32,000 nucleotides of DNA, taken from assembly GCA_942493095.1 (NCBI GenBank), contig OW818675.1, positions 1,860,001 to 1,892,000 on the forward strand, in the 5' to 3' direction. The notes under the pieces were generated by a model. That model made no database searches, was not told the DNA's origin, and saw nothing but the letters and a program-made list of their open reading frames with translations. Below are positions 2,272 to 32,000 of this stretch, piece after piece (position 1 is the first letter of the stretch; each line of letters begins with the position of its first letter). The stretch is from Candidatus Electronema halotolerans (GTDB lineage Bacteria > Desulfobacterota > Desulfobulbia > Desulfobulbales > Desulfobulbaceae). The position numbers were made by a program, and so were the translations under genes.

Positions 2272-3059
2272 ACATCAGTCTGATCATCACCACCTACAAT
2301 TGGAAGGAAGCCTTGGGCTTGGCCCTGAAAAGCGCGCTCCAGCAGACCCGGCTGCCGCTGGAAATCATCATTGCAGATGACGGCTCCCGGCCTGACACCG
2401 GCGAGCTGATTTGCCGCATTGCCGCGACCGCGCCAGTGCCGGTGCTTCATTCTTGGCAGGAGGACAAGGGCTTCCGTTTGGCTGCCAGCCGCAACAAGGC
2501 CTTGGCCAAGACGCATGGGGACTACATCATTCTCATTGACGGCGACATCATCTTGGAGCGGCATTTTCTTTATGATCATGCCCGCTTTGCCAAGCCCGGC
2601 AGCTTTGTCCAAGGAACACGGGTCCTGCTGGGCGAGCAGTTGAGCCGGGAGGTGCTGGCTGGACGGAAAAATCTGCGTGAGCCGATCTGCCGCCGGGGCG
2701 TGGAGAACCGGAAAAACTGCCTGCGCTCAGACATTCTCTGCCGTCTTTTTTCCTACCGGGATTGGAGCATGAGCGGAGTGCGCACCTGCAATTTCGCCTT
2801 CTGGCGCAGCGACGCGCTGGCCGTGAACGGTTTTAATGAGGATTTTGTCGGCTGGGGCCGGGAGGACTCAGAATTCACCGCCCGGCTGCTCAACTGCGGC
2901 CTTGTCCGCCGGAACATCAAGTTCAATGCCTTGGCCTACCATCTCTATCATCCCCGCAACGACCGCAGTCATCTTGAGGACAACAATCAGCTGCTCAAGA
3001 ATACTATTGACAACAAGCTGATCTGGTGCGAGAAAGGGGTGAGCAGTCATCTTTCTTGA
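2268..3059 (+). CDS. glycosyltransferase family 2
   Basis: ISLIITTYNWKEAL...IIIADDGS...ILIDGD is the typical GT2 (GT-A fold) nucleotide-sugar binding and DxD region. Translationally coupled to the GT9 gene. Confidence 0.85.
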   Translation: MNISLIITTYNWKEALGLALKSALQQTRLPLEIIIADDGSRPDTGELICRIAATAPVPVLHSWQEDKGFRLAASRNKALAKTHGDYIILIDGDIILERHFLYDHARFAKPGSFVQGTRVLLGEQLSREVLAGRKNLREPICRRGVENRKNCLRSDILCRLFSYRDWSMSGVRTCNFAFWRSDALAVNGFNEDFVGWGREDSEFTARLLNCGLVRRNIKFNALAYHLYHPRNDRSHLEDNNQLLKNTIDNKLIWCEKGVSSHLS

Positions 3060-3155
3060 AGCTGATTTTGCTGTTTTCCCCTTGATGTCTCATGGGCGGA
3101 TGAAATATCTTGAGCAAAAGACATCCTTCTGAACTGAATAACCCCTCCTGAATTG

Positions 3156-4331
3156 ATGAAAAAAATCTCAGCCGCAGTGCTTCTGGTGCGCGTTGTGCTT
3201 TGCCTGCTGATTCTTGCCGCTGGCGTTGCAGGCATGAAACGGCTCAATGCTATGAAAAAGCCGCCTGTGCAGGTGGAGCAGCAGGAACGCGCCCTGCCTG
3301 TGCAAGTGCTGCGGGCGCAGACGGAAAGCGTGCCTGTGATCATTTCCGGGTATGGCGAAGTTGCCGCCCGCTCGGTCATCACTTTGCCTGCCGAAGTTTC
3401 TGGACGGATCACGACGGCTTATAAAAATCTCCATGTTGGCGCGGTGATCCAGCAGGGAGAAGTGCTCTACATGATCAATGATCAGGATTACCGCTTGGAG
3501 TTGGACAGCGCGCAGGCCCGTCTGAAAAGTCTGGCCCGCGACCTTGAGCTGACCCGCAAGGAACAGGCCCGCCTCAGCGGTCTGTATCAGAAAAATATCG
3601 GCAGCCAGTCGAATGTTGAGCAGGCGGAGCGGGCGGTCAACGCCATTCAAACCCAGATCATCCAGTTGGAGCAGGCCCAGAAGCAGGCCAAGCTGCATCT
3701 TGCCCGCTGTCTGATCCGTGCGCCATTCACCGGGCGAATCACCGAGCTGTTTGCCGAGCAGGATGAATACGTGACTCCGGGCAAGAACTTGGTCACGCTG
3801 ACAAATGACAGCGATCTTGAGGCGCAGGTGCCTTTGGACAGCCGCGAGGCCCTGAAATGGCTTCGTTTTCAGCAGAGTCAGGACGGTTCTTGGTTTGGCA
3901 GGCCGGAAAAGACCGCCTGCACCGTGACATGGACAGAGAATGCGGCAGTGCAGGCTGAGGGCAGCGTTGATCGGGCGGTTCGTTTTGATGCCAAGACCAG
4001 AAGCGTAGTTCTTGCAATCCGTATTAAACCGAAAAAAGGCGCAGCTATTCCACTGACCCAAGGCATGTTCTGCCGGGTTGACATTCAGGGCCATGCCATC
4101 AAGCGGGCCGTTGTCCTGCCCCGGCAGGCAGTGAGTTTTGAGAACACGGTTTATGTGGTCAAGGAAAATCGGCTGCAGACCCGCCCAGTGGAGGTGGCGA
4201 GAGTCCAAAACGGCAAGGCCATTGTAGTCAGCGGCTTGCAGGAAGGCGAGCAGGTGATTGTCACCCGGTTGGAAAATCCGCCAGAAAATTCATTGGTGCA
4301 GATTCAGAATCGAGATGCTGGATTCAAGTGA
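3156..4331 (+). CDS. efflux transporter periplasmic adaptor subunit (HlyD/MFP family)
   Basis: N-terminal membrane anchor MKKISAAVLLVRVVLCLLILAAGVAG. Lipoyl/hairpin region (coiled coil LELDSAQARL...IQTQIIQLEQAQKQAKLHLARCLIRAPFTGRI). Beta-barrel and MP domains ending in GLQEGEQVIV. Start moved to ATG 3156 (track start 3153 is TTG). Confidence 0.8.
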   Translation: MKKISAAVLLVRVVLCLLILAAGVAGMKRLNAMKKPPVQVEQQERALPVQVLRAQTESVPVIISGYGEVAARSVITLPAEVSGRITTAYKNLHVGAVIQQGEVLYMINDQDYRLELDSAQARLKSLARDLELTRKEQARLSGLYQKNIGSQSNVEQAERAVNAIQTQIIQLEQAQKQAKLHLARCLIRAPFTGRITELFAEQDEYVTPGKNLVTLTNDSDLEAQVPLDSREALKWLRFQQSQDGSWFGRPEKTACTVTWTENAAVQAEGSVDRAVRFDAKTRSVVLAIRIKPKKGAAIPLTQGMFCRVDIQGHAIKRAVVLPRQAVSFENTVYVVKENRLQTRPVEVARVQNGKAIVVSGLQEGEQVIVTRLENPPENSLVQIQNRDAGFK

Positions 4332-4854: not shown

Positions 4855-7227
4855 ATGAAAAAGATTCTCTCTCTTGCCTTGGCTGCGTCGCTCACGTCAA
4901 TTTTCTGCCCGCAGAGCAGCGCGTGGAGCAAGTCATCCTTGCTCTTGCAGATTCCAGCGATTTTGGCGAAGCCGCAAGGCGGAACCACAACGGTCAACGA
5001 CAATGTGACGGTCATTGATGAAAACAGCGCGGCTGAGATTGTCAGCTCGAATACCAGCGCGGAAGGAGACACAGAGCTTCAGTTATCTGGCAATTTGGCA
5101 AGTTCCACGCAGGACGGTTCCATTTTGTATTTGCTTTCCGGCGCGGATGACCGTTTTCCTTTTGGCATTGCTGGCAAAGTGGTCAGCACAACCAGCAATG
5201 CTGATGGAACAAAGACTGTTGTTTTGGGTGAAGCGACCTATGCGGACATCGTCAAAGAGGCATCTTTTAATCTGGACAACATCGTCTTGGATGCAAGCAA
5301 TTTTGTTGGCGTGATTGCTCCGGCTGCTGTTGAGGCGGCATCGCCAATGTCGGCAGCATTGGCAAAAAGCGTATCTGATGGCAGTGTTTATTCGTTCCGT
5401 GATGGTGCGGTTGTGGTCAGGCGGACTGTGGATAAAAGCAGGGCGATGTCTTCCGCATCGGAAAGCGGAACAATAGATGCTGGCACTGTGTCGCTTAATA
5501 TGAAGGTCGATCTTGGAAAAATTATTGACGGAGTTGAAGCAAGTACGATGAAACCGATCAACATTAACACTCCTGTTGGCTTTGTAATAAGCGGCTCCTT
5601 AAAAAATATTAAGATTACTAATGAGAATGAGTTCTCACTTCTTAAAGGCGGATTGAAATATCTCAATTTGCGTTTGGATGGTGATCTTGATTTTGACGTG
5701 AAATTTAACGGCAAGGGAGCGGTGAAGTTCGGCTATTTTTCCCAAGCATGGAATGAAGTAAAAGATGAGTCTTTTAAAATGCTTGGTGTCAAAGCAAAAC
5801 TTAATGGGCTGTCGTCAGATGACAAAATAGGTAAATATCCTCTTGCCGGTTTGGTTTGGTCGGTGCCATGTCCAGAGACTTGCCCTGTGCTGACAGGAAA
5901 AACTCAAACACCATTGCGGCAGGCTAAAGCATTGGGTGTCATTGTTTGGTTGTATCTAACAGCAGAAGGAGAATTCTCACTTGATGGAAATTTTACTCTC
6001 GCGCATCTGACTCCAGCCGGTTTGTCTGTTGGCATCAAGAAAACTTATGGAAATGATTTTAACATAATAAATTCATTAACAAAAAAGAGTGCTTCTGATT
6101 GTCTTATAGAGTCCCCTGAACTTGATGGAAAGGCTGGTTTGCAAGTTAAAGCTGGAATTACAACAGATTTAGATTTTCTTGCAGGTGGTGTACGAATTGC
6201 AAATGCTGGCATGGATGTCGTAGGCCTTTTTAAGGCGCAAGCAACTGGGAAAGCTGGCTATTGCATTAACAATCTTGGCGAATCAGGGAGCTGGAACGGT
6301 GAAATTTGTTTTTCAGGAGGCTTGGGAGCTGGTCTTATAGCTCGCGCTGCGGCAAAGGTTGGCATTGAGATTGATACTACGTGGAAAGATGTGTCTCTTA
6401 ACTTGGAATATTCAAAGCAAACTCCTGCTAAAGAAGATATTGATAAAGAGGGCAGGCACGGGCTGTGGTATTATAAATCTTTCACCTTGTTGTCAACATT
6501 AAATGACACCGGCATAACGTGGAGTGGCAATTATGAGTCCGGGAACAACACGGCCTGCATTGCTTCAAGCACCCCGGACGGCGACAACGTGGTTGCTGCG
6601 CAAGACTGCTCGCATGGACGGGATGCAACCCATAATGACGACAGTGACGGCGATGCCGGATTCAGTTACACCAAATTGAACAGCGATGGCAAACCGTTAG
6701 CTAATCAAAATGCGGATTACGCAACCACGCCTTGGGCCTGTGTGAAGGACAATGTTACCGGTCTGATTTGGGAGGTAAAAACTGATGACGGCGGTCTGCA
6801 TGATAAGGATGATGAATATACTTGGTACAATACTGACCCAAAAACCAATGGCGGCTCAAATGGTTATGATGCTGGAGATAACTGTTACGGATATGACAGC
6901 AGTGATTCGTCCACCTTCTGCAATACCCAAGCCTATGTGAACCGGGTGAATGCGGCAGGCTGGTGTGGGGCCTCTGATTGGCGGATGCCGACACGCAAAG
7001 AGCTGGAGAATCTTGTTCATCATGGCCGCATCGACCCAGCAATAGACATCGACTATTTTCCCAATACGAGGAGTTGGTATTATTGGTCTGGGGTGCCGAA
7101 TGCTTACGATAGGGATGGTCAAGAAAGAGTGTGGACAGGTGATTTCGTCGACGGCGATGGAGGCACCTTTAACCGCTTTGTTGACCTTCCGGTTCGGTTA
7201 GTACACAACGGACAGTGCAATAAATAA
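4855..7227 (+). CDS. large secreted protein with C-terminal DUF1566 (Lcl C-terminal domain)
   Basis: Signal peptide MKKILSLALAASLTSIFCPQSSA from ATG 4855 (track start 4840 is TTG). The C-terminal ~250 aa match the DUF1566 pattern: LNDTGITW...QDCSHGRDA...AGFSYTKL...CVKDNVTGLIWEVKTDDGG...YTWY...CNTQAYVNRVNAAGWCGASDWRMPTRKELENLV...YFPNT..YWS. The middle ~380 aa are not recognisable. Confidence 0.8.
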   Translation: MKKILSLALAASLTSIFCPQSSAWSKSSLLLQIPAILAKPQGGTTTVNDNVTVIDENSAAEIVSSNTSAEGDTELQLSGNLASSTQDGSILYLLSGADDRFPFGIAGKVVSTTSNADGTKTVVLGEATYADIVKEASFNLDNIVLDASNFVGVIAPAAVEAASPMSAALAKSVSDGSVYSFRDGAVVVRRTVDKSRAMSSASESGTIDAGTVSLNMKVDLGKIIDGVEASTMKPININTPVGFVISGSLKNIKITNENEFSLLKGGLKYLNLRLDGDLDFDVKFNGKGAVKFGYFSQAWNEVKDESFKMLGVKAKLNGLSSDDKIGKYPLAGLVWSVPCPETCPVLTGKTQTPLRQAKALGVIVWLYLTAEGEFSLDGNFTLAHLTPAGLSVGIKKTYGNDFNIINSLTKKSASDCLIESPELDGKAGLQVKAGITTDLDFLAGGVRIANAGMDVVGLFKAQATGKAGYCINNLGESGSWNGEICFSGGLGAGLIARAAAKVGIEIDTTWKDVSLNLEYSKQTPAKEDIDKEGRHGLWYYKSFTLLSTLNDTGITWSGNYESGNNTACIASSTPDGDNVVAAQDCSHGRDATHNDDSDGDAGFSYTKLNSDGKPLANQNADYATTPWACVKDNVTGLIWEVKTDDGGLHDKDDEYTWYNTDPKTNGGSNGYDAGDNCYGYDSSDSSTFCNTQAYVNRVNAAGWCGASDWRMPTRKELENLVHHGRIDPAIDIDYFPNTRSWYYWSGVPNAYDRDGQERVWTGDFVDGDGGTFNRFVDLPVRLVHNGQCNK

Positions 7228-8541: not shown

Positions 8542-9300
8542 ATGACCCACGTGACAGCCCTTGCAGGCAAAGGCGGCACCGGCAAGACCACCACAGCCGC
8601 CCTTCTGCTCAAATATCTCACCGCTCATGGCAAGACCCCGGTCTTGGCTGTGGATGCTGATGCCAACGCCAACCTGAACGAGCTGCTTGATCTCAAGATC
8701 AGCACCACCCTCGGCACGATCCGCAAGGAGCTGAAAGGCGATATTCCGCCCGGCATGAGCCGCGATCAGTATATGGAAATGAAAATCCATCAGGCCCTGC
8801 TTGAGGAAAAGGGTTTTGATCTGATGGTCATGGGCCAGCCGGACGGGCCGGGCTGCTACTGCGCCGCCAATCAGTATTTGGCCATGACCATGGACCGGCT
8901 GGCCGACAACTACAAGCACATCATTGTTGACAACGAGGCTGGCATGGAGCATCTCAGCCGCCTCAACCTGCGCCGAATTGATCAGCTCATTATTGTTTCT
9001 GATCCCTCAGCACGGGGCATTCTCACCGCCCGCCGGATTGCTGATCTGACCGGGCCGCTCCAGCTCGACATCCGGGCGCAGCACCTGATCGTCAACCGCG
9101 CTCCTGATCCCATCCCCCCTGCTCTTCAGGAAAAAATTGACGCGGCAGTGACCGAGAGCGGCTTGCGCTTGGCAGGCATCATTCCAGCCAGCGAAGAGCT
9201 GGTCGGCCAGGAACTGAGCGGCGCATCCTATTTGCAGCTCCCGGAAGACTCGAAAATTATCCAGCAGGCGTTCGCTGTCTTTGACCGGATTTTCGGATAA
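8542..9300 (+). CDS. CooC/MinD-superfamily P-loop NTPase
   Basis: Deviant Walker A LAGKGGTGKTTTAALL, followed by VLAVDADANANL and GCYCAAN (CooC-like Cys motif). Its stop TAA shares one nt with the ftsE ATG at 9300. Confidence 0.75.
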   Translation: MTHVTALAGKGGTGKTTTAALLLKYLTAHGKTPVLAVDADANANLNELLDLKISTTLGTIRKELKGDIPPGMSRDQYMEMKIHQALLEEKGFDLMVMGQPDGPGCYCAANQYLAMTMDRLADNYKHIIVDNEAGMEHLSRLNLRRIDQLIIVSDPSARGILTARRIADLTGPLQLDIRAQHLIVNRAPDPIPPALQEKIDAAVTESGLRLAGIIPASEELVGQELSGASYLQLPEDSKIIQQAFAVFDRIFG

Positions 9301-10016
9301 TGAGCGAAAAACGGCAGACCATAATTGACCTGGCCAGGGTCAGCAAGACCTTTCCGCCAGATGTTCATGCCTTGGATGACATTTCTTTGCGCATCCGCCA
9401 AGGCGAGATGATTTTTCTCACCGGGCAAAGCGGAGCTGGCAAGACCACCCTGCTGCGCCTGCTCTGCGGCATTGACAGGCCGGACAAGGGCTATGTCGAG
9501 ATTGTCGGCCAGGATCTGAGCCGGGCCACTGATGCGGAGCTGCAAGACTTGCGCCGCCGCATCGGCGTGGCTTATCAGGATTTCAAGCTCCTGCCGGACA
9601 AGACTGTGGCCCAGAACATCGCCTACTCAATGGAGGTTGCCTACCGGAGCAGGCAGTTCATCCGCAGCCAGACGGAAAAGCTGCTCACCGAGCTGCATCT
9701 GGCTGACAAGCAGGATGCGCTGGCTGGCTATTTGTCCAGAGGCGAGCAGCAGCGGGTGGCCATTGCCAGAGCAGCAGCCAATGAACCGGAGCTGATTCTC
9801 GCCGACGAGCCGACCGGCAATCTCGATAAGGAGACCACAGGGCTGGTCATGCAGCTTTTCCGCCACTGCAACGAGCAGGGCACCACTCTGCTCATAGCCA
9901 CCCATGATCATTCGATTTACGATTTTCCGGGGAGCAAGGTGGTTAAAATCGAGAACGGGCGGCTGGCGATTCAGAAGCCTGCGGCTGCGCTCAAAAAAGC
10001 GGAGGCCCGGACATGA
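9300..10016 (+). CDS. ftsE: cell division ATP-binding protein FtsE
   Basis: Walker [18 protein letters not shown] signature [14 protein letters not shown], Walker [13 protein letters not shown]. Followed by ftsX with an ATGA overlap. Confidence 0.9.
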
Positions 10017-29882: not shown

Positions 29883-30083
29883 ATGATGCGGACTCAAGCC
29901 ATGCCGGAACAAAACGAAAGCGCAGTGGAAAAAGCTCTGGAAAAGGCGGCCAAAATAATCTGCACCCTGAAGTGCGGACGCTGCCCGATGCAGGAGGAGA
30001 ATTTTCCCGGCTGTCCCTGTGTCTGCCATGAAGATATTGTCCCGTGGCAGTGCTGGATATCCTATCTGCGGGCAACAGCATGA
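29883..30083 (+). CDS. 66-aa cysteine-rich small protein
   Basis: Strong SD (cAGGAGGAGaaaATG). 8 Cys clustered as CTLKCGRCP...PGCPCVCHEDIVPWQCW. Its stop TGA overlaps ATG 30080 of the next ORF (ATGA). Confidence 0.5.
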   Translation: MMRTQAMPEQNESAVEKALEKAAKIICTLKCGRCPMQEENFPGCPCVCHEDIVPWQCWISYLRATA

Positions 30084-30484
30084 GCAATTTCACAATCAGG
30101 AGGCGCAGGAAACGAATGAGTGATTTTTTGCAGCTCCGGCTGCTGCCGGGCGGTCAGGCGGTTCCGGCCAGCCCGGAAGGCAAGTTGAACTGCTGGGAAT
30201 TCAGAAAGTGCGGTCGCGAGCCGGGCGGCGCAAACGCCTCTCATGCCGGAACCTGTCCGGCGGCAGTTGAAGCGCGGGCGGACGGCATTCACAGCGGCAT
30301 GAACGGCGGACGCTGCTGCTGGGCTGTGACCGCCGCCCTGCGGCAGCAGGGTATCTGTTTGGACCAGTGTGGCGGCGACTGTGATGGCTGTGATTTTTAT
30401 CGCTTGGTCAGGAACGAGGAGGAGCAGCGGCTGGTGCTCAGGCATATCCGGCCTGCCGCCCTGCTCAGAAGCAAGATGTTCTGA
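30080..30484 (+). CDS. stand-alone two-CW-domain-like protein
   Basis: NCWEFRKCGREPGG...GTCPA...NGGRCCWAV...C..C.FYRLV has two Cys-Trp dipeptides in the arrangement I recall for the two-CW sensor domain family. The start is either ATG 30080 (ATGA coupling) or ATG 30116 (AGGAGG 12 nt upstream). Confidence 0.6.
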   Translation: MSNFTIRRRRKRMSDFLQLRLLPGGQAVPASPEGKLNCWEFRKCGREPGGANASHAGTCPAAVEARADGIHSGMNGGRCCWAVTAALRQQGICLDQCGGDCDGCDFYRLVRNEEEQRLVLRHIRPAALLRSKMF

Positions 30485-30512: not shown

Positions 30513-31583
30513 TCAGAGCTTCAGCACCAGCACGTCCGCCAGCCAGCCTGCGTAGCTGCTCCTGATCATCTCGGTCAGGGCGGCATGGTTGTTGACCGTG
30601 ATGTTCAGGCTGCTGACAGCGGAACCGGCAAAGCCGGGCAGGGTGTATTCTCCGTCAGCAGTTGCGGTGACGACATCGCCTGCCGCGCCGTCCTCCTGCA
30701 TATCCAGCAGACCGAGGCGCAGGCGGCTGTCCGCCGGATCCAGCCCCGCCTGAACACGCAAGGTCTCATCCGCAGTCAAGCTGCCGCCGGTGACAGTCAC
30801 ATAAGGGGCGGTCGCGTTGTTGGTCAGGATGCCGACCTCCATATTCGGATGGTCAAAACCGGTCACAGTCAGGGGCGAGCGCAGCTTGCGGCGGCAAGTG
30901 CCGGTGCGGAGTGTGCCATGCGCGGTGTAGCGGGTGCTGAGGGAAAGGATGTATTCATTGTTCCACGGCGCATCTTGGGCCGGGATGTGCGGCACCAGCA
31001 AGACTTCACTGTTGCTGACAGAGGCGAACTGGCTCTGCACCGCCCTGCCGCTGCGGGTCCCTTCGATCACGCAGCCGCAGTCCGGGGCAGTCCGATCAAA
31101 GTCGAGATTGCTGCCGGTCAGCCGGAGCACGCCGTCCGGGTTGAGAACATTGTTCAGCTTGAGCACCGTGTCTTCCGCCGAACTGATCACGGGCAGTTTT
31201 TCTTCGGCAGACACACGTTCTATGTGAACTTGCCGCCCAACCTCTTTGACAAGGGTGCGCGAAGCCGAGACCTTGACCCGCAGCATGTCCTCAACCGGCG
31301 GCAGCGGGTCGTCCGGCTCGTCCAGACGGACATTGAAGGAAAGGCTGTAGCTGAAGGCATTTTTCAGCGTGACCTTATTGCCGTTGACAAGCTGCTTCAT
31401 GATCATCTTGTCCCGCGCCATCAGCACTGCTTTGATCATTTCCTCGTCCCAGAGCGGATTGTCCCGCGCCATTTCCGCAGCCAGTTCATCATAGCCGAGG
31501 ACATTCCGCGCTATGAAGCGCAAGTTGTAGGACGGAGGCACGGTCATGGCGTTCGGTTCGGGCCGGCATAGGATAGTGTTCAT
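30513..31583 (-). CDS. HU-like (HU_HIG-type) DNA-binding domain + DUF4469-like Ig-fold protein
   Basis: The N-terminal ~110 aa (YNLRFIARNVLGYDELAAEMARDNP..EEMIKAVLMARDKMIMKQLVNGNKVTLKNAFSYSLSFNVRLDEPDDPLP) follow the HU-fused-to-Ig family pattern. The next segment (PVISSAEDTVLKLNNVLNPDGVLRLTGSNLDFD...) resembles DUF4469. ATG 31583 has GGAGA upstream. The track's 29 extra codons were dropped. Confidence 0.55.
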   Translation of the reverse strand: MNTILCRPEPNAMTVPPSYNLRFIARNVLGYDELAAEMARDNPLWDEEMIKAVLMARDKMIMKQLVNGNKVTLKNAFSYSLSFNVRLDEPDDPLPPVEDMLRVKVSASRTLVKEVGRQVHIERVSAEEKLPVISSAEDTVLKLNNVLNPDGVLRLTGSNLDFDRTAPDCGCVIEGTRSGRAVQSQFASVSNSEVLLVPHIPAQDAPWNNEYILSLSTRYTAHGTLRTGTCRRKLRSPLTVTGFDHPNMEVGILTNNATAPYVTVTGGSLTADETLRVQAGLDPADSRLRLGLLDMQEDGAAGDVVTATADGEYTLPGFAGSAVSSLNITVNNHAALTEMIRSSYAGWLADVLVLKL

Positions 31584-31641
31584 AGCGATTCTCCAATTGA
31601 ATTCAACTGCTTGATACTTCCGACAATATTCCTGACTCAGC

Positions 31642-31670
31642 AGCTTACGGAGGCGGCGGGGTTTTGTCAA
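31642..31670 (-). promoter_or_regulatory. sigma70-type promoter candidate (TTGACA-17 nt-TAAGCT) for the HU-like gene
   Basis: On the - strand there is a perfect -35 TTGACA (31670-31665), a 17-nt spacer and TAAGCT (31647-31642), about 60 nt upstream of ATG 31583. On the + strand the -35 reads TTGTCAAG, which is the same as the start of repeat unit 2 in the adjacent array. Confidence 0.35.
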
Positions 31671-31702
31671 GCCTATTTTTTTCCGTCCTGGCAGCCAGTG
31701 TC

Positions 31703-31840
31703 TTGTCAGACAAGTCCCAAGGCAGTTGTCAAGAAACTCCTTTGGGAGTTATCAGAGAACTGACTAAGGAGTTGTGAAGAAACTGCCAAGGGACTTGTCA
31801 GACAACTTGCCGGGCAGTTGCCAAGCAACTCGCTGGTGAG
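31703..31840. repeat. six tandem degenerate 23-bp direct repeats (iteron-like), consensus ~TTGTCAGAnAACTnnCnAAGGnAG
   Basis: Units read head-to-tail:
- ttgtcagacaagtcccaaggcag
- ttgtcaagaaactcctttgggag
- ttatcagagaactgactaaggag
- ttgtgaagaaactgccaagggac
- ttgtcagacaacttgccgggcag
- ttgccaagcaactcgctggtgag
A weaker seventh unit lies at 31841-31863. Units 1 and 5 contain the palindrome CTTGTC-A-GACAAG/C. Confidence 0.8.
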
Positions 31841-32000
31841 TTCCGCAGCAGAATCCTTGCTGTGTCCGCGTCTTTCAGCCAGCTATAAACACAGGAACTC
31901 TCTTCCCAGAAAAAGCGTAAAAAAGCGTTGATCTTTCCGCCTGTCAGTGCTTGTCTTATCGCAGGAGCTTGTATTTTCATCAACAAATGGAGGAGAACCA

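Follow-up and report, generated by a model that had tools for sequence, protein, structure and literature searches.

A promoter-phased array of 23-bp dyads beside an HU-fold gene of Candidatus Electronema halotolerans: a probable binding lattice for the protein of that gene

Introduction

What reads a run of 23-bp direct repeats that lies directly upstream of a gene for an HU-like protein? The question is raised by a 32,000-nt stretch of the chromosome of Candidatus Electronema halotolerans (contig OW818675.1 of assembly GCA_942493095.1, positions 1,860,001 to 1,892,000 of the forward strand), hereafter the window, whose own positions are used as coordinates below. An initial annotation, made from the letters of the window, flagged the region 31584-31863 upstream of the HU-like gene and proposed a cooperative protein-binding platform, which could be an operator-like site of the adjacent protein, a centromere-like site or the origin of an integrated element. 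We compared this region with the upstream regions of homologous genes. The array is very probably a protein-binding lattice of some kind, and the comparison makes it reasonably probable that it is a double-stranded-DNA binding lattice for the protein of the adjacent gene. The anatomy of the repeat unit, its conservation, its phasing with the promoter, the distinctness of the arrays within one genome and the occurrence of arrays away from the gene family are observed directly and are described first; the mechanism and its rivals are weighed against them.

Array in the window and in homologous loci

In the window, the period-23 self-match covers 31703-31850, equal to 6.4 units. The period of 23 bp ranks top among periods 12-40 (z = 15.2 relative to 100 shuffles). 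Two arrays are listed by Tandem Repeats Finder, one of period 23 at 31703-31807, with 4.5 copies, 69% matches and a score of 74, and one of period 46 at 31702-31831, with a score of 125. A repeat search gives five in-register copies with spacings of 23, 23, 23 and 23 bp. The 16-mers AACTNNNNNNNNAGTT (frame AACT-N8-AGTT) begin at 31712, 31735, 31758, 31781, 31804 and 31827, and the unit motifs are restricted to the array within the 32-kb window (5 matches versus 0.24 expected, and 8 versus 0.47 expected). Thus, the six to seven head-to-tail units of the initial annotation are borne out, and the palindromes that it placed in units 1 and 5 are present as CTTGTCAGACAAG at 31702-31714 and CTTGTCAGACAAC at 31794-31806. 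Its weaker seventh unit at 31841-31863 is only partly real, as conservation among orthologues ends near 31848. The open reading frames (ORFs) that cross the array are short ones only, and orthologous arrays differ by 23-bp insertions or deletions, which break any frame; therefore, the array is non-coding, in agreement with the earlier view. The units are contiguous and have none of the unique spacers of a CRISPR array.

Homologues of the adjacent gene come from Candidatus Electrothrix, Candidatus Electronema, metagenome-assembled genomes of Desulfobulbaceae and metagenomes. A scan of one genome per species gave 107 copies, of which 79 loci were kept, with up to 15 copies from a single genome among them. 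Globally, the family is small: of 1.84 billion cluster representatives (50% identity), 284 belong to it. The repeat recurs in these relatives: the best upstream period is 23 bp in 61 of the 77 testable loci (z > 4), and Tandem Repeats Finder finds 23 bp in 49 of the 77. Several of the loci that were scored as array-less have remnants of an array or an alternating pattern of 46 bp. Across 83 loci, the module has no conserved neighbouring gene, and the conserved unit is the array, the promoter and the gene.

This lack of conserved company bears on the proposal that the repeats are the iterons of an origin of replication, or that they form the centromere of a plasmid-like element that has integrated. 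Iterons typically occur as tandem repeats of about 22-23 bp, and an array adjoining the gene of its binding protein is typical of parC/ParR. With a period of 23 bp and 6.4 units, the array lies in the iteron range of about 17-23 bp at roughly two helical turns, and its copy number changes by whole units, which counts in favour of this reading. Nevertheless, no Rep, ParA/ParM or integrase is conserved nearby in the 83 loci, and the window is a housekeeping part of the chromosome (rpsB, a pyrH-type kinase, uppS, cdsA and dxr). DnaA-box matches are at chance level with none within 5 kb, no A+T-rich stretch is present (GC content 0.475-0.52 over the region), up to 15 modules occur in a single genome among the 79 kept loci, and no relatives were found in plasmids or phages (tblastn) or in IMG/VR (scan). 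We regard this alternative as highly improbable; the origin of an integrated element is largely refuted by the context, by the missing DnaA boxes, by the absence of rep, par or int neighbours and by the absence of plasmid, phage and IMG/VR relatives, whereas the centromere-like site survives as an analogy only, with no partner nucleoside triphosphatase.

The unit sequence is completely different between paralogs. For 87 array pairs from the same genome, the top unit similarity is 14/23, equal to background, and the 11 pairs with a similarity of at least 16/23 are all between genomes and correspond to orthologues. An exact look-up of the window protein in assemblies gave no record. Orthologues of the window gene, which were reached through the homologues, are metagenomic (77%, 80% and 98% identity); all retain the AACTCC..GGAGTT core and differ by the gain or loss of exactly one 23-bp unit. 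In the closest one (L082, protein identity 98%), the array, the promoter and the ORF downstream are shared with the window. Comparison of L082:1-140 with window 31848-32000 shows complete divergence just beyond the distal edge of the array, which indicates a rearrangement or an assembly breakpoint at the module boundary. In the orthologues, the divergent neighbour has no NCBIfam match.

In cable bacteria, 23-bp arrays also accompany a second HU-fold/DUF4469 subfamily, whose identity to the window protein is about 27%. These lie at L095/L096:1741-1842 and L099:1785-1845 in Candidatus Electrothrix, and the promoter differs. The non-cable members examined (L094 and L097/L098) have no 23-bp array; in L097:2001-4164, two paralogs of this subfamily stand in tandem right after a gene for an 837-residue product, again with no 23-bp array. 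The unit of L099, GAATGCATGCATTCG, resembles those of two arrays distant from family genes (L044:337-447 and L024:12046-12128). As a separate observation, a multi-copy TPR family (L042:4086-5711 and nine other loci) is found at a median of about 1.9 kb upstream of several different HU-fold paralogs, mostly in the same direction.

Dyad symmetry of the unit

Every unit is a dyad of two half-sites, a feature that had been missed in the initial annotation. The unit is composed of a 6-bp arm, a 6-bp centre and a second 6-bp arm, forming an 18-bp dyad, followed by a 5-bp linker, and this geometry is common to all arrays; in the window, the unit core is AACTCC-N4-GGAGTT. Since 18-bp dyads alternate with 5-bp linkers, the orientation of the half-sites alternates every 11-12 bp. 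In consensus units, the best axis pairs a mean of 7.16 of 11 positions, compared with 5.68 ± 0.91 in shuffles, and at least 8 pairs occur in 18 of 45 arrays versus 2.3% of shuffles. Complementarity depends on the distance from the axis, with 76-100% at positions 4-9, 41-69% in the centre and 41-48% in the linker, and the register is the same everywhere. Conservation within arrays is likewise highest in the arms (0.84-0.91, compared with 0.66-0.69 in the linker). Arm changes between related arrays are paired, as in ACATAC..GTATGT, ACATGC..GCATGT and ACATCC..GGATGT. In addition to the class-specific arms, the half-sites share a base frame that is independent of class: of 58 half-sites, 52 have A/T at position 4 and 45 at position 8, and G/C is found at position 9 in 47 and at position 2 in 46. 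This frame is replicated in 14 independent arrays that do not adjoin a family gene.

Two further features of the array region were observed. The 46-bp super-period of window 31702-31831, also present in the upstream regions of L034 and L007, arises from two unit types that alternate, and the linkers in the window alternate between GTCAGAC-like and GTCAAGA-like sequences; the super-period could reflect dimer-of-dimer binding or a 46-bp duplication unit. A palindrome, CTGGCAGCCAG, lies at 31688-31698 between the array and the A/T element next to the promoter. It is partly conserved in orthologues and out of register with the 23-bp lattice.

Promoter and its register with the array

The array lies upstream of a nearly invariant promoter. 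Of the 77 loci, 68 have a perfect TTGACA as the -35 hexamer and 74 have a 17-bp spacer; the median distance from the start of the -35 hexamer to the ATG downstream is 87 bp. A simple promoter scan did not call TTGACA-17-TAAGCT in the window, where the -10 hexamer matches TATAAT at only three of six positions; the window site is taken as a promoter from the cross-locus conservation and not from the simple scan. The distance between the dyad axis and the first base of the -35 hexamer takes the values 25.5, 48.5-49.5, 71.5-74.5 bp and so on (49.5 bp in the window), and 24 of 30 arrays fall at 2.5-4.5 modulo 23 (Rayleigh R = 0.67). Given this phase, the -35 hexamer fills the arm position of a virtual next site of the lattice. 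At the smallest of these distances, we estimate that the nearest real axis is at about -61.5 relative to the predicted start site. The initial annotation had noted that a half-site coincides with the -35 hexamer, and TTGTCAAG at 31664-31671 does overlap the perfect minus-strand TTGACA (31670..31665). However, this coincidence is specific to the sequence class of the window, and the general rule is that the -35 hexamer is in register with the 23-bp lattice.

The same observations allow two other explanations to be weighed. If the array were a functionless minisatellite produced by replication slippage, polymorphism in unit number between orthologues would be expected, as is seen. Yet the period, dyad register, base frame and promoter phase are all conserved across paralogs that are about 50% identical, and the 23-bp array recurs upstream of the cable-bacterial members of the second subfamily at about 27% identity, so that we give this explanation scarcely any weight.

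Alternatively, the array could be transcribed and act as RNA in the form of a string of hairpins, for example as a leader or as a small RNA that serves as a protein sponge. A hairpin with a 6-bp stem and a 6-nt loop is possible in each unit, and the region folds far better than shuffles (z = -5.7 and -6.2 for the two strands). On the other hand, both strands fold equally well, and the wobble-type mismatches are at the expectation from composition for either strand (64 G·T and 106 A·C of 488). The palindromy often crosses the centre, which leaves loops that are too small, and the strict 23-nt period and the phase with the -35 hexamer have no rationale for hairpins. The array is upstream of the conserved promoter with a variable upstream context, and no Rfam match is found at the gathering score, with only noise at E <= 10. 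The RNA-hairpin reading was rejected because of the missing wobble excess, the strand-symmetric folding and the position upstream of the promoter, and we consider it very improbable. The strict period points to a constraint of helical geometry on duplex DNA.

The adjacent HU-fold protein

The window protein is below all Pfam cut-offs, with 17.3 bits for PF14848 (HU-DNA_bdg; cut-off 30) and 20.4 bits for PF14734 (DUF4469; cut-off 22.6), although PF14734 is recorded for many close homologues. Against NCBIfam, it has a sub-threshold HU_rel match only (TIGR01201, 11.8 bits versus a cut-off of 68.6), and a PHROGs scan gave no match. Relatives at 25-30% identity pass the Pfam cut-offs for PF14848 (HU-DNA_bdg), PF18291 (HU-HIG) and PF00216 (Bac_DNA_binding). 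The AlphaFold2 model has a predicted local distance difference test score (pLDDT) of 88. The top match of this model in Foldseek is 4FMR (BVU_2165, a structural-genomics protein from Bacteroides; E = 4e-13 over about 250 columns), and the match spans the HU domain and the immunoglobulin-like (Ig-like) domain with 14% identity. The N-domain also matches HU and IHF chains in Foldseek, with target-normalised template-modelling scores of 0.6-0.8, and has the elements of their fold, namely two helices, a beta-sheet bearing an extended arm, and a helix at the C-terminal end. The structural matches and the relatives that pass Pfam show that the name 'HU-like', given in the initial annotation, is correct at the fold level.

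Among 82 paralogs, the most variable stretch is formed by residues 41-64 in the long helix of the HU domain, followed by residues 110-120. Variation is almost absent from a putative arm tip, PDDPLPP, and conservation is highest at residues 171-260. This pattern fits, but does not prove, a variable reading of DNA combined with a common function of the C-terminal part.

Arrays distant from the gene family

An array scan was carried out over 889 kb of locus sequence, in which arrays with no family gene within 600 bp were termed orphan arrays. The scan found 59 gene-linked and 24 orphan arrays. All 24 orphan arrays are intergenic and, where compared, lie a few tens to a few hundred base pairs upstream of the nearest ORF start. 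By sequence alone, the neighbours that were inspected resemble genes for an epimerase, a phosphate-transport permease, an ABC transporter and the like. The orphan arrays have the same dyad register and base frame as the gene-linked arrays, and 13 of them match a gene-linked class at 16/23 or better. In two clear cases, an orphan array and the gene-linked array of its class share a genome: the orphan array L037:12885-12996 with L073 in Candidatus Electronema aureum, and the orphan array L023:2827-2990 with L051 in S01.Bin068. In both pairs, the similarity stops at the array limits. Same-class orphan arrays look as the trans targets of a sequence-specific factor would look.

A family-type promoter was found in phase beside the orphan array of L010 and, in phase at a larger distance, beside that of L065; a third candidate, in L027, is out of phase. 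In L010, the array at 2400-2513 has the promoter in the correct phase (25.5 bp) ahead of a pair of small ORFs at 2520-3292, which by eye resemble a ribbon-helix-helix antitoxin and a RelE/ParE-type toxin, with no HU-fold gene. In L068, two orphan arrays of the same class (705-801 and 9226-9311) are 8.4 kb apart and flank an HU-fold gene (6001-7065) that itself lacks an array; the units of the two arrays look similar, by eye, to those linked to the gene of L059 in another genome. A metagenome pattern scan for arrays of the window class gave 11 matches, all in unrelated organisms without a family gene. Picked up by chance in that scan, four marine metagenome contigs (L087, L090, L091 and L093) show an array with a 24-bp period and AACT..AGTT-like units in a low-GC organism, also without a family gene.

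Proposed mechanism and the weight of the evidence

The view of a cooperative binding platform tied to the HU-like gene gains comparative support from the linkage in 61 of 77 loci, from the conserved period, register and promoter phase, and from the paralog-specific sequences; that the array is bound, by which protein, in what dimer geometry and with what regulatory sign is what we infer from this pattern. By linkage and parsimony, the adjacent HU-fold protein is the likelier binder. A homodimer of this protein would sit on each dyad. The conserved proline-tipped arms (PDDPLPP) may engage the class-independent A/T positions about 4 bp on either side of the axis, and the hypervariable helices (residues 41-64 and 110-120) may read the paralog-specific outer bases of the arms. 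Four to nine dimers would polymerise at the 23-bp spacing to form a bent or superhelical nucleoprotein filament. With the nearest dyad axis 25.5 + n × 23 bp upstream of the -35 hexamer, such a filament could set the expression of its own gene from the strong promoter, either by spreading over the -35 hexamer as a repressor or by acting from a fixed face as an activator. The private sequences of the paralogs would allow many such proteins to work side by side in one cell with no cross-talk, and same-class orphan arrays elsewhere in the genome would be the trans targets of the same protein.

Several observations weigh against this mechanism. The sequence class of the window itself has C, and not A/T, at position 4, and the dyad symmetry is weak in about a third of the arrays. 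Most orphan arrays have no family-type promoter. Canonical HU binds DNA without sequence specificity, and the A/T steps of the dyads, about 8 bp apart, match only approximately the kinks of IHF/HU complexes, which are spaced by 9 bp. With column entropy controlled for, residues of the HU domain share no more mutual information with the half-site bases than do those of the C-terminal domains (p = 0.8), the signal being driven by column entropy, and unit similarity correlates weakly with domain identity (rho about 0.1). Finally, pairs that are 85-92% identical in the hypervariable helix differ clearly in their units (L031/L032 and L035/L043), which shows that this helix alone cannot encode the specificity.

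The mutual-information result and the pairs with near-identical helices also count for a different explanation, in which the array is bound by other factors, or is read by its shape or as a cruciform, and the HU-fold genes are simply the most frequent regulated target. The locus-specific sequences would then be the product of tandem repeats evolving in concert, with geometry as the sole constraint. This explanation can account for the 24 of 83 arrays that do not adjoin a family gene, and palindromy with compensatory arm changes would also fit cruciform extrusion. However, one sequence class is kept at unlinked loci of the same genome and across species with unrelated flanks, and this requires sequence-specific selection. 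The arms are conserved above the centre and the linker, and the arrays of one genome are all mutually distinct, which suggests the avoidance of cross-talk. Moreover, the sole gene family that is systematically linked to arrays has a DNA-binding fold. We consider binding by other factors or reading by shape unlikely, and retain the HU-fold protein as the candidate binder.

A wider picture can be drawn more tentatively. Cable-bacteria-type Desulfobulbaceae may each hold a dozen or more orthogonal HU-fold proteins, with private 18-bp dyads in 23-bp lattices at their own promoters and in orphan arrays. The divergent HU domains would serve as the address, and the conserved Ig-like C-terminal domains would provide a shared function, for example by contacting RNA polymerase, one another or a cell structure, giving a sequence-addressed layer of nucleoid organisation or gene control. 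HU-family proteins are textbook examples of non-specific or weakly specific nucleoid proteins. If the mechanism holds, the modules would provide a case from nature in which the HU/IHF fold has been redirected to many sequences. Paralogs that each own a different symmetric, tandemly arrayed site would mean that this fold is able to take on many orthogonal specificities. The dozens of natural protein/site pairs would form a data set on how the HU fold reads sequence. Cable bacteria are multicellular, electrically conductive and hard to grow. Linked and orphan arrays are easily found computationally and would supply testable targets for a regulatory or architectural layer in these organisms. The modules would also give a first functional lead for the DUF4469/HU-HIG/BVU_2165 group, in which a structure has been solved; no function or DNA target for DUF4469, BVU_2165 or HU-HIG was found in the searchable literature, which is incomplete.

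Features and neighbourhood of the module

The positions of the array, its dyads, the promoter and the gene are collected in Table 1. In the window, the neighbours of the HU-fold gene are genes for a two-CW protein and a GGDEF/EAL protein. The former is a Cys-rich ORF of 146 residues at 30044-30484 on the plus strand, convergent with the HU-fold gene, and is assigned as a two-CW domain protein (NF045718, E = 1e-22); a two-CW ORF also follows the HU-fold gene in L082. Between the GGDEF/EAL and two-CW genes, the segment 29600-29900 has a low GC content of 0.43-0.44, compared with about 0.6 in the flanks.

Table 1. Positions of the array, promoter and gene features in the window.
Feature	Position	Strand	Description
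Array	31703..31850		23-bp units, head to tail; two alternating linker types give a 46-bp super-period; Tandem Repeats Finder, repeat search, z = 15.2; kept in L080-L082
Dyad element 1	31711..31728		Core AAGTCCCAAGGCAGTT; axis 31719.5, 49.5 bp from the first base of the -35 hexamer
Dyad element 2	31734..31751		Core AACTCCTTTGGGAGTT; perfect 6-bp arms
Dyad element 3	31757..31774		Core AACTGACTAAGGAGTT; missing in orthologues L080-L082
Dyad element 4	31780..31797		Core AACTGCCAAGGGACTT
Dyad element 5	31803..31820		Core AACTTGCCGGGCAGTT
Dyad element 6	31826..31843		Core AACTCGCTGGTGAGTT; distal edge of the conserved module, L082 diverging just past it
-35 hexamer	31665..31670	-	TTGACA; at the arm position (k = 4-9) of a virtual site 46 bp (two periods) promoter-ward of dyad element 1
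-10 hexamer	31642..31647	-	TAAGCT after a 17-bp spacer; family consensus TAnnnT then G
A/T-rich element	31671..31682	-	Abuts the -35 hexamer upstream; AAAAAAATAGGC on the gene strand; family consensus A-N-A-A-T-T-y-T-C
5' leader	31584..31641	-	About 50 nt, length constant across paralogs; GGAG ribosome-binding site at 31594..31591
HU-fold gene	30513..31583	-	356-residue protein with an HU/IHF-fold N-domain (about residues 1-125), then a DUF4469 Ig-like domain and another beta-rich region at the C-terminus

Comparison with known systems

By analogy, the arrangement is of a known kind, in which a DNA-binding protein has a tandem operator or a centromere-like array adjoining its gene. Its unusual features are the HU fold, the orthogonal expansion of paralogs, a dyad lattice of strict 23-bp period in phase with the promoter, and the orphan arrays. 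It is conserved in cable-bacteria-type genomes and apparently undescribed; a description of it was not found in the searchable literature, whose incompleteness makes this weak evidence of novelty.

In the type II ParR-parC systems of plasmids R1 and pSK41, the omega/heptad system and SopB-sopC, short tandem repeats lie at or near the promoter of the binder's gene. In systems of the ParR-parC type, cooperative dimers on successive repeats form a helical nucleoprotein filament and exert autoregulation, and each system has a private repeat. The units of sopC are direct repeats that each contain an inverted repeat. The 23-bp arrays described here share with the parC and sopC systems the architecture of an array beside the gene of its presumed binder, with the binding here being putative, and share with sopC the combination of direct repeats and an inverted repeat within each unit. 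Unlike in ParR-parC and SopB-sopC, the HU-fold modules have no partner ATPase (ParM or ParA) and no conserved neighbour, and the protein has an HU/IHF fold with Ig-like domains instead of a ribbon-helix-helix or ParB fold. The modules are also unlike plasmid partition systems in being chromosomal, with as many as 15 from one genome among the kept loci, and the family is absent from the plasmid collection.

Plasmid iterons, such as those of RK2, R6K, pPS10 and P1, are direct repeats that bind Rep, and the same protein exerts autoregulation. The arrays resemble them in having direct repeats at a spacing of about 22-23 bp beside the gene of a DNA-binding protein. They differ in that a Rep initiator, DnaA boxes and an A+T-rich unwinding element are all missing, the units are dyads and not asymmetric sites, and many arrays occur per chromosome.

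The closest relationships in fold are to the DNABII proteins. The N-domain has the same fold as IHF, Hbb and other site-selective members of this group, with a conserved proline-containing arm tip, and the sites resemble those of IHF and Hbb in being dyad-like with A/T preferences a few base pairs on either side of the centre. In contrast, IHF sites are single and asymmetric with one consensus, whereas arrays of 4-9 symmetric sites at a strict spacing of 23 bp are found here. Unlike IHF, a different sequence accompanies each of many paralogs, and the proteins carry about 230 extra residues of beta-sandwich. The families HU-DNA_bdg (PF14848), HU-HIG (PF18291) and DUF4469 (PF14734) are known mostly from Bacteroidota, and the order of domains in the window protein, an HU-like domain followed by a DUF4469 Ig-like domain, is that of BVU_2165 (4FMR).

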